A model generated the notes under the pieces. The model saw nothing but the letters and a program-made list of their open reading frames with translations. It made no database searches and was not told the origin of the DNA. 64,000 nucleotides of DNA from Escherichia coli (GTDB lineage: Bacteria; Pseudomonadota; Gammaproteobacteria; Enterobacterales; Enterobacteriaceae): NCBI RefSeq assembly GCF_044324785.1, contig NZ_CP172127.1; one strand, 5' to 3'. Position numbers and translations under genes: made by a program. Below are positions 3,577 to 64,000 of this stretch, in pieces; positions within the stretch are counted from its first letter, which is position 1, and every line of letters begins with the position of its first letter.

Positions 3577-6380
<2,804 letters not shown>

Positions 6381-62013: not shown

Positions 62014-62029
62014 TTTCACTAATAAATAG

Positions 62030-62057
62030 AACGGGGCCAAAGGGTCCCGTTTTTTTC
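62030..62057 (+). terminator. glgP intrinsic terminator
   Basis: AACGGGGCC-AAAG-GGTCCCGTT hairpin (9-bp stem, one G-U pair) followed by TTTTTTT. Confidence 0.75.
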
Positions 62058-62140
62058 GCCATCATTTCGGAAAAGTGTCCAGAAGGGGCAAGGGGACTCG
62101 GGGAGTATAATTTTGCCATTCAGAAAGAATGGAAAGAATA

Positions 62141-63646
62141 ATGCAAAACAGAAAATGGATTTTGACCTCGCTGGTAATGACTTTTTTCGGCATCCCCATT
62201 CTGGCGCAGTTTTTGGCGGCGGTTATTGCCATGCTGGGGGCCGGGCTTGCCGCTATTCTTGAGTTTTGCAATTTACTCTTTACGCCAACAATTTATCTTC
62301 TACTCAACGTCTTTATGCTGACGCTGGGCGCATTACTGCTATTTTTCTCTGGGCGAGTGTGGGCGGGCGATAACGCACCAGAAAACAGAGAAATAGCCGC
62401 CTGGCGACAATGTCTTTTTTTAGTTCCCGCTTTATTAACCCTGGTTGGCTGGATAATCACGCTACATCTGGCAGATTATCAATTTCGCCAGATGGTTTCA
62501 GGTTGGTTGGCAGATCTTATGCTTCCCTGGCTGGGTGTTTTGTTAGTCTCATTAGTCGGTGGTGAGTACTGGTGGATAGTCATTATTCCCGTTGGAACGC
62601 ATATCATTTTTTCGCTGGGATACGGCTGGCCGACAAGGCATCCTTTAACCGGCACGTCCGGGCTACGTTGCCGTAACTTACTCCTGTTTCTACTTCTCTT
62701 ACTTGGTATTGTCGCTGGGTATCAGGCCCATTTATATAAGCAGCATAACCCTGGTGTTGGTGTACGCGAAAATATTGATATCTGGGCCTGGCGACCCGAT
62801 AAACTCAATAATCGACTGACGCCGCTGCGTGGCAAACCGCAAATTCAGTTTACGCAAAACTGGCCGCGAATCGATGGTGCCACGGCGGCGTACCCAATTT
62901 ATGCTTCTGCCTTTTATGCGTTAAGCATAATACCAGAGGATTTTCACGTTTGGGATTATCTGGATAACTCTCGTACGCCAGAAGCATATAACAAAATCGT
63001 TAAGGGCGATGCTGATATTATTTTCGTGGCGCAACCTTCCGGTGGGCAGAAAAAACGTGCAAAGGAATCTGGTGTCACTTTGCTGTACACCCCCTTTGCT
63101 CGTGAAGCATTTGTTTTTATCGTCAATGCTGATAATCCAGTCAATTCCCTGACTGAACAACAAGTGCGAGACATTTTTAGTGGCGCAATTACCAACTGGC
63201 GTACTGTGGGCGGTAACGATCAGGAGATCCAGACCTGGCAACGCCCGGAAGACTCTGGCAGTCAGACGGTGATGCAATTACAGGTCATGAAAAATGTCCG
63301 TATGATCTCGCCGCAGGAAACCGAAGTGGCAAGTGTGATGGAGGGAATGATTAAAGTCGTTGCCGAATACCGTAATACAAACAACGCAATAGGTTATACC
63401 TTCCGCTATTACGCAACACAAATGAATGCCGATAAGAATATCAAATTGTTAGCGATTAACGGTATTGCACCGACTGCGGAAAACATTCGCAATGGCAAAT
63501 ATCCCTATATCGTCGATGCCTTTATGGTAACGCGGGAAAATATGACGTCAGAAACACAAAAACTGGTTGAATGGTTTTTAACGCCGCAGGGGCAGAGTTT
63601 GGTAGAAGACGTGGGTTATGTGCCGATGTATAAAACGTTGCATTAA
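62141..63646 (+). CDS. yzgL: Membrane protein with a C-terminal PstS-like periplasmic phosphate-binding domain (intact counterpart of the K-12 yzgL pseudogene)
   Basis: About 200 aa of hydrophobic helices followed by a substrate-binding-protein-like domain. Start set at MQNRKW (62141), which has better Shine-Dalgarno spacing than the ATG at 62129. Confidence 0.6.
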   Translation: MQNRKWILTSLVMTFFGIPILAQFLAAVIAMLGAGLAAILEFCNLLFTPTIYLLLNVFMLTLGALLLFFSGRVWAGDNAPENREIAAWRQCLFLVPALLTLVGWIITLHLADYQFRQMVSGWLADLMLPWLGVLLVSLVGGEYWWIVIIPVGTHIIFSLGYGWPTRHPLTGTSGLRCRNLLLFLLLLLGIVAGYQAHLYKQHNPGVGVRENIDIWAWRPDKLNNRLTPLRGKPQIQFTQNWPRIDGATAAYPIYASAFYALSIIPEDFHVWDYLDNSRTPEAYNKIVKGDADIIFVAQPSGGQKKRAKESGVTLLYTPFAREAFVFIVNADNPVNSLTEQQVRDIFSGAITNWRTVGGNDQEIQTWQRPEDSGSQTVMQLQVMKNVRMISPQETEVASVMEGMIKVVAEYRNTNNAIGYTFRYYATQMNADKNIKLLAINGIAPTAENIRNGKYPYIVDAFMVTRENMTSETQKLVEWFLTPQGQSLVEDVGYVPMYKTLH

Positions 63647-63659
63647 GCAGGATTACAAT

Positions 63660-63746
63660 ATGGATATCATTAATATTTTCCTGAACGCGGCGAATGCCCT
63701 TTTTATCTATCAGCCGTTTATGCACGATCAGCGGGCGAGGGGGTAA
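63660..63746 (+). CDS. Possible 28-aa small ORF or leader peptide (MDIINIFLNAANALFIYQPFMHDQRARG)
   Basis: ATG with AGGA 7 nt upstream; its stop lies 2 nt before the next ATG. Short and unsupported by homology. Confidence 0.25.
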   Translation: MDIINIFLNAANALFIYQPFMHDQRARG

Positions 63747-63748
63747 TT

Positions 63749-64000
63749 ATGCAACCCAGCCCCGCCATGCAGGCATTAATTGAGCAGGTTTATCATATTT
63801 TTCGTCGTTATCCGGTGCCGCAGCAATTTGTTGTTTGTTGTGAATATTGCCTGAGTCAACAGGAACAAAAAGCATTACGGAATACATCGTTGCGAGCGAT
63901 TCCTTATTCCTTAATCAATGCCTGGAATAGTAGTCCAGGACCTGATCCGCAAAACAGCGATGAGGTTCGTTATTTTCTGCCGCGTTTACTGGAATTTGTT
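63749..64000 (+). CDS. Hypothetical protein, N-terminal 84 aa; gene runs off the window end
   Basis: Open frame from ATG 63749 to the window end (MQPSPAMQALIEQVYHIFRRYPVPQQFVVCCEYC); GAGGGGG Shine-Dalgarno upstream. Not recognised. Confidence 0.4.
   Translation, partial: MQPSPAMQALIEQVYHIFRRYPVPQQFVVCCEYCLSQQEQKALRNTSLRAIPYSLINAWNSSPGPDPQNSDEVRYFLPRLLEFV

Follow-up and report, generated by a model that had tools for sequence, protein, structure and literature searches.

The subject of this analysis is a 28-codon open reading frame (ORF) near the end of a 64,000-nt stretch of the Escherichia coli N3 genome (RefSeq assembly GCF_044324785.1, contig NZ_CP172127.1; hereafter the window), where it directly precedes a gene for a 258-aa protein that runs over the window edge. 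We conclude that this tiny ORF is very probably a pseudogene scar, that is, the leftover of an in-frame internal deletion in a 236-codon gene. An earlier examination of the nucleotide sequence (the sequence-only reading) had described a tiny hydrophobic ORF with a Shine-Dalgarno sequence, ending 2 nt before the ATG of a larger gene, and had suggested that this leader-like arrangement may be regulatory. The arrangement itself was borne out by the sequence; its interpretation is revised here.

The small ORF encodes the peptide MDIINIFLNAANALFIYQPFMHDQRARG. Its ATG at position 63660 lies 7 nt downstream of an AGGA motif (63649-63652), and the dinucleotide TT is all that separates its TAA from the ATG of the next gene at 63749. 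In the annotation of N3, this place is a 102-nt gap without a called gene. The length of the ORF is not improbable by itself, as 28 stop-free codons are found in random sequence with P = 0.26.

The origin of the ORF was revealed by the comparison with other E. coli strains. In PEC165 and STEC367, the same slot is occupied by a coding sequence of 711 nt, labelled "YbbD family protein" or hypothetical by the Prokaryotic Genome Annotation Pipeline (PGAP), which is separated from the stop codon of the upstream PstS-like gene by 14 nt and from the following ATG by 2 nt. The alignment with six intact alleles showed that the small ORF consists of the start of this parent gene and its last 22 codons joined in frame, with a net loss of 624 nt (208 codons). 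Strains N47 and FDAARGOS_1284 carry intact alleles whose 3' end matches the 66 nt of the scar's 3' segment with 100% identity. None of the six intact E. coli alleles differs from the scar in the last eight codons, which include the GAGGGGG of the next gene, or in the stop codon, and all but one of them share the TT spacer, the exception being FDA943 with CT. At the 5' end, 13 of 17 nt match the start of the intact PEC165 gene (ATGGATATCATTAATA in the small ORF vs ATGGAATTAGTTAATA in the intact gene; MDIIN vs MELVN in the protein), and the preceding spacer measures 13 nt in the scar vs 14 nt in the intact locus.

The distribution of the scar was examined in 5,426 complete E. coli genomes using junction-spanning probes, with a match defined as at least 80% of the query covered. 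The two probes matched 677 and (the shorter one) 671 genomes, many of the carriers belonging to sequence type 131 (ST131), and 661 of the matches were at least 99% identical. According to these probes, one junction is common to all scar carriers. The interior of the intact gene was present in 2,333 genomes and the downstream 258-aa gene in 3,009, which is near the sum of 2,333 and 677. The sequence-only reading had made conservation in related strains decisive for the small ORF, and the outcome is mixed: the ORF is invariant in approximately 670 genomes, but it is not conserved as such, since the outgroup and approximately 2,330 E. coli genomes have a full gene for 236-251 aa in its place. The parent gene was also broken independently elsewhere, by internal deletions (P0201 and P0221) and by frameshifts (P0214, P0215, and P0217).

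The outgroup genus, whose GlgP is 91% identical, indicated the direction of the change. In both outgroup loci (L053 and L056), glgP is followed by a PstS-like gene, a 251-aa ortholog of the parent protein (73% identity), a gene for 248 or 256 aa, and convergent glpD. The outgroup ortholog starts 1 nt after the PstS-like stop codon and ends 1 nt before the next ATG; across E. coli and the outgroup, the gene in this slot encodes 236-251 aa and stops 1-2 nt before the following ATG. Since the long gene is intact at the same syntenic site in the outgroup, we regard it as ancestral and the small ORF as derived. The pair of genes for 236 and 258 aa is retained in Enterobacteriaceae down to approximately 50% identity (L053, L056, and L068). 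As a separate observation, with a start at the in-frame ATG of position 63618, the small ORF would have 42 codons (63618-63746; MCRCIKRCIKQDYNM...) and overlap the 3' end of the PstS-like gene; the N-terminus of this variant resembles the called N-terminus of the outgroup ortholog P0204 (MCRCMKHSLTQGSNM...).

The following course of events would account for these data. The ancestral run between glgP and glpD would have comprised the genes for the 505-aa PstS-like protein, the 236-aa "YbbD-family" protein, a protein of 255-258 aa, and a 201-aa membrane protein, with 1-14 nt between the genes. In one lineage, now represented by approximately 671-677 of the 5,426 genomes, including ST131 and N3, a net 624 nt would have been lost within the 236-aa gene, and its last codons would have been retained together with the stop, the Shine-Dalgarno sequence of the next gene, and the 2-nt spacer in front of that gene. 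It is because these last codons hold the translation signals of the next gene that the scar resembles a coupled leader. In the AlphaFold model of the parent protein, the retained tail corresponds to the end of the last helix and the last beta-strand, and as a fragment of this predicted structure it would be unable to fold alone. The scar peptide itself is presumably functionless and would, at most, passively bring terminating ribosomes beside a gene that has a strong ribosome-binding site itself.

Remnants of this kind are familiar. In-frame deletion pseudogenes, such as yzgL of E. coli K-12 at the same locus, likewise align colinearly with the two ends of an intact ortholog at the same site. 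The scar shares with them a single junction, the preservation of the neighbouring genes and translation signals, and a parent gene that is otherwise broken in other lineages. It differs in that it retains a usable start and frame, mimicking a designed small ORF, and in that its 5' end is unusually diverged.

Two sets of data weigh against the deletion origin. The first is this 5' divergence: the first 20-30 nt of the scar differ by approximately 25-30% from all intact alleles, including those of the outgroup, which precludes a base-by-base reconstruction of the junction, and more than a single event may lie behind it. The second is the in-frame state of the scar, its good AGGA-ATG start, and its 100% identity across approximately 660 genomes, all of which would also fit a retained function. 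The invariance is explained equally well by the dense sampling of clonal ST131 and a single origin; since clonal lineages dominate the sample and all copies stem from one event, it carries little weight.

Meanwhile, the coding sequence of the scar gives few clues to constraint, as its replacements are mostly shared with the intact N47-type alleles and there is no polymorphism among the carriers. We had considered five replacements in the tail, three lost arginines among them, as a sign of relaxed constraint, but withdrew this argument, since four of the five also occur in the intact N47-type alleles. Either the shared tail changes predate the deletion or the N47-type alleles gained their 3' end by recombination from the scar haplotype. 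The intact 236-aa alleles with the last 66 nt of the scar (N47, L059 2357-3067; FDAARGOS_1284, L060 2363-3073) are accordingly either the progenitor of the deletion or evidence of recombination between scar and intact haplotypes.

The alternatives were weighed with these data at hand. The one that survives best concerns the lost gene rather than the small ORF, and we consider it improbable. It holds that the 236-aa gene encoded an effector or toxin with a deaminase fold, that the helical 258-aa protein is its cognate inhibitor, and that strains of the N3 type kept an "orphan" protective gene. The two genes are indeed translationally coupled across genera, the upstream gene was repeatedly inactivated and the downstream one is under purifying selection, and the 258-aa family has tandem paralogs, fused duplicates, and a patchy phyletic distribution. 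The structural basis is a resemblance of the parent protein to the deaminase-like fold, which is weak in the predicted model. Only one of the five AlphaFold models was confident, with a pLDDT (predicted local distance difference test) of 79 for the best. The zinc motifs of deaminases ([HC]xE and PCxxC) are not conserved, and C111 alone is invariant. A CxE..CxxC cluster at residues 190-201 has the wrong spacing, lies in a low-confidence loop, and is missing from the distant orthologs P0216 and P0218. For want of conserved catalytic and zinc motifs, we did not accept the parent gene as a member of the cytidine/deoxycytidylate deaminases.

Comparative data also spoke against a toxin-immunity pair. 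The two proteins co-occur in E. coli, L053, L056, and L068, but not obligately. In locus L065, two PstS-like genes precede the 236-aa ortholog, which has no neighbouring gene of the 258 family, and the 258-aa family occurs alone in L006 and in 38 distant loci. These distant members (Bacteroidota, Azoarcus/Zoogloeaceae, and Alphaproteobacteria), found in a genome scan with a profile built from a 14-sequence subset of the family alignment, have no recurrent neighbour and adjoin unrelated or small enzymes and housekeeping genes. On the same grounds, we rejected the notion that the 258-aa family forms an array of orphan immunity genes. Neither protein gave a Pfam, NCBIfam, or PADLOC match above threshold to known toxin, immunity, or defence families, and no secretion or delivery domain was detected. 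The sole PHROG match of the 236-aa protein was one family of unknown function (E = 2.4e-4), which is uninformative. The "YbbD family" label did not lead to K-12 ybbD/rhsD, since tblastn against the rhsD-ybbD region of K-12 gave a best E value of 2.8, and the model PRK09781 scored 25 bits against the parent protein (cutoff 373). In comparison with proteins of the cytidine-deaminase-like fold, including toxin deaminases with downstream immunity genes, the parent protein lacks the conserved motifs and its pairing is not obligate. There is a slim chance, nevertheless, that the two genes form a module in which a helical protein with a Cys motif neutralises or partners a catalytically divergent deaminase-fold protein; the scar strains would then have lost the latter and retained the former as an orphan with a protective or regulatory role. 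If so, this module would offer a first insight into the function of a family that has at least 486 clusters from several phyla.

It is less plausible still that, after the deletion, the scar was co-opted as a small hydrophobic protein with a function. In its favour are the preserved frame, a good ribosome-binding site, and an invariant sequence, but one in three deletions is in frame by chance, and given clonal sampling and a single origin the invariance carries no statistical weight. The term "hydrophobic" used in the sequence-only reading holds to a mild degree. The grand average of hydropathy (GRAVY) of the scar peptide is 0.18, above that of the parental tails (-0.66 for the MS7163 type and -0.21 for the N47 type), and most of the hydrophobic changes are already present in intact alleles. 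The best 19-residue Kyte-Doolittle window reaches 1.28, which is short of the usual transmembrane threshold of approximately 1.6 for this window size.

Attenuation leaders of amino-acid operons are likewise small ORFs with a ribosome-binding site that end beside the start of the next gene, and the 28-codon ORF could be regarded as such a leader peptide or upstream ORF whose translation controls the 258-aa gene by coupling or attenuation. The position of the AGGA and of the stop codon, as well as an in-frame ORF that is invariant in approximately 660 genomes, would agree with this. However, the same stop-ATG spacing and Shine-Dalgarno sequence are present in the intact 236-aa gene of approximately 2,330 genomes, and a similar arrangement is seen in the outgroup. 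Since the intact gene occupies the same slot with the same spacing, the tight coupling is inherited operon geometry and not leader design. The 258-aa gene has its own strong GAGGGGG, and runs of regulatory codons are absent from the peptide. At the small ORF, neither a promoter nor a terminator consensus was found (terminator scan of 63600-63800). RNA folding revealed no excess structure (-34.9 kcal/mol vs a shuffled mean of -38.5, z = +0.92). The Rfam scan of the locus gave no family at threshold, and its sole sub-threshold match was located elsewhere, in the glgP-PstS spacer: a "ylbH leader" at 62019-62123 (L001 3620-3724), with 22.9 bits vs a gathering score of 50 and E = 0.066, which is probably a chance match. 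The scar thus differs from leader peptides in having no alternative RNA structures, terminator, or regulatory codons and in its demonstrable origin as a gene fragment, and the regulatory role suggested earlier, being unsupported by any of these analyses, is the least probable of the alternatives and very unlikely.

The arrangement is, in all likelihood, ordinary gene decay in an already-described variable region, not a regulatory device. The pseudogene interpretation removes a false lead, as a leader-like small ORF proves to be a deletion scar with a "design" inherited from the intact gene, and it calls for caution in screens for small ORFs and leader peptides in accessory regions. Nothing in this will surprise specialists. 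The analysis also yielded a clean haplotype map of the glgP-glpD hotspot and flagged two proteins as targets for structural genomics, one with a confident all-alpha fold and no solved relative (a family of at least 486 clusters) and the other its possible deaminase-fold partner.

The features located in and just beyond the window are collected in Table 1.

Table 1. Positions of the small ORF, its remnant segments, and the adjoining genes and signals (window numbering; numbers above 64,000 continue it past the window edge; L001 numbers refer to that locus).
Feature	Position	Strand	Remarks
PstS-family, membrane-anchored substrate-binding protein, 505 aa	62129-63646	+	PGAP start at 62138; same operon-like run
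Spacer, 13 nt, with AGGA	63647-63659	+	Counterpart of the 14-nt spacer before the intact gene elsewhere
28-codon ORF	63660-63746	+	ATG 63660; 28 sense codons, MDIINIFLNAANALFIYQPFMHDQRARG; TAA 63744-63746
Remnant: parent start region	codons 1-5	+	Alignment with six intact alleles
Remnant: junction zone	~63675-63680	+	Alignment with six intact alleles
Remnant: last 22 codons of parent	63681-63746	+	Alignment with six intact alleles
GAGGGGG, Shine-Dalgarno sequence of the 258-aa gene	63737-63743	+	Within the last codons of the remnant; 5 nt before ATG 63749
258-aa gene (WP_116836241.1), first 84 codons	63749-64000	+	525 nt more, to 64525; L001 5350-6126
CCEYC motif (C30, C31, C34)	63836-63850	+	Residues 30-34 of the 258-aa protein
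Divergent patch of the 258-aa gene	~64173-64370		L001 ~5774-5970; residues ~160-200; just past the window edge

The downstream frame, which the sequence-only reading saw as open at the window edge, belongs to a real long gene. It does not close just past the window: extended into the N3 genome, it is a coding sequence of 777 nt for 258 aa. The CC-x-YC cysteine motif reported in its N-terminus is present as CCEYC. The gene had also been described as one that could not be placed, and the searches agreed, as no Pfam, NCBIfam, PADLOC, or PHROG family recognised the protein. A word-indexed search found relatives only in Escherichia and Shigella. The exhaustive HMMER search, on the other hand, retrieved 486 cluster representatives at E <= 1e-3, most of them of 240-260 aa and 20-42% identical. 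The near-invariant positions of the family are Y15, F18, C30, C34, P78, R79, W109, E113, and W203; among the distant members, C30 and C34 reach a conservation of at least 90%, and the alignments show the motifs V-C-T-x-C-C, as the consensus around the cysteines, and [KR][YH]FLPR. Judged by the full-length homology and these conserved positions, the 258-aa protein is a member of an uncurated, widespread family of all-alpha proteins of approximately 250 aa with a Cys motif. No Pfam domain was found in the 60 family members examined, and there was no sequence relative in the Protein Data Bank (PDB). The AlphaFold model is all-alpha, with a pLDDT of 89.6 and a predicted template modelling score (pTM) of 0.89. 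The protein is regarded as soluble. The gene is under purifying selection, with an omega of 0.15-0.25 in all pairs, including the pairs of remnant strains.

Tandem paralogs and fused duplicates occur in this family. In an enterobacterial metagenome contig (L006 6001-7586), two tandem paralogs of 262 and 261 aa, 42% and 50% identical to the N3 protein, adjoin ampC-like and porin genes, and no PstS-like or 236-aa gene is near. The long homologs P0121 and P0178 were inspected for a fusion-partner clue and proved to be merely tandem duplications of the same domain. Over a patch of approximately 200 nt, the N3 allele departs from other E. coli alleles by approximately 40% mismatches and a 9-nt insertion. 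Patches of this type are also present in P0001, P0005, and P0023 and in the paralogs of L006 and L068. The synonymous sites of the N3 patch are saturated, which suggests that it was imported by recombination from a distant allele or paralog.

The PstS-family gene upstream of the scar encodes a polytopic N-terminal region followed by a PBP_like_2 domain (E = 6e-30). The protein scores below the family cutoff of TIGR02136 (121 bits vs 206.6), and there are no pstCAB genes near it in the N3 annotation. Between E. coli strains, the PstS-like gene differs by 10-17% of its nucleotides, whereas the adjacent 3' end of glgP differs by only approximately 1% per 100 nt; the PstS-like alleles are either unusually deep or mosaic. 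The order in N3 is glgP, the 505-aa PstS-family gene, the 102-nt gap, the 258-aa gene, 2 nt, a 201-aa hypothetical membrane protein, and convergent glpD. In K-12, yzgL, which is a 5' fragment of the 505-aa PstS-like gene, stands alone, and convergent glpD follows shortly after it, as the sequence-only reading had anticipated. The 236-aa and 258-aa genes are both absent from K-12, in line with the strain-specific content expected there.

In passages of two papers, the glgP-glpD interval appears as the variable region "Hotspot A, glp-glg region" (PMC13185298) and as "GR 24" carrying the auf fimbrial operon (PMC12928451). The same interval and the same haplotypes (PstS-like, auf, second PstS, and K-12 remnant) are seen in the present data as in those passages, which neither describe the 28-codon scar nor characterise the hypothetical genes. 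The literature yielded hotspot descriptions only and nothing specific to these genes. The haplotypes are as follows: (1) the four-gene type with the PstS-like, 236-aa, 255-aa, and 201-aa genes; (2) the scar-bearing type, as in N3; (3) the auf operon in place of most of the PstS-like gene; (4) the PstS-like gene with a second PstS-family gene and a membrane protein of 200 aa that shares 70% identity with the 201-aa protein; and (5) the K-12 remnant.

In the extraintestinal pathogenic E. coli (ExPEC) strains MS7163, E15, N47, FDAARGOS_1284, and CFT073 (L050, L051, L059, L060, and L064), a fimbrial operon replaces the PstS-like gene, of which the last 25-30 nt are left, and the trio of 236-, 255-, and 201-aa genes follows intact. 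This is presumably the auf operon that the passage of PMC12928451 places in the interval. In BL21(DE3) (L061 4173-5767) and in O157:H7, which is of the same type, a second PstS-family gene of 330 aa replaces the 236-aa/258-aa pair. Since the 200-aa membrane protein is retained in L061 without the pair, the membrane protein tracks the PstS-like genes and not the pair. Past the window, between the 201-aa gene and glpD, a GC-rich hairpin (GCCCGGTTG-AAGTG-CAACCGGGC; L001 6756-6778) scored as terminator-like on the minus (glpD) strand.
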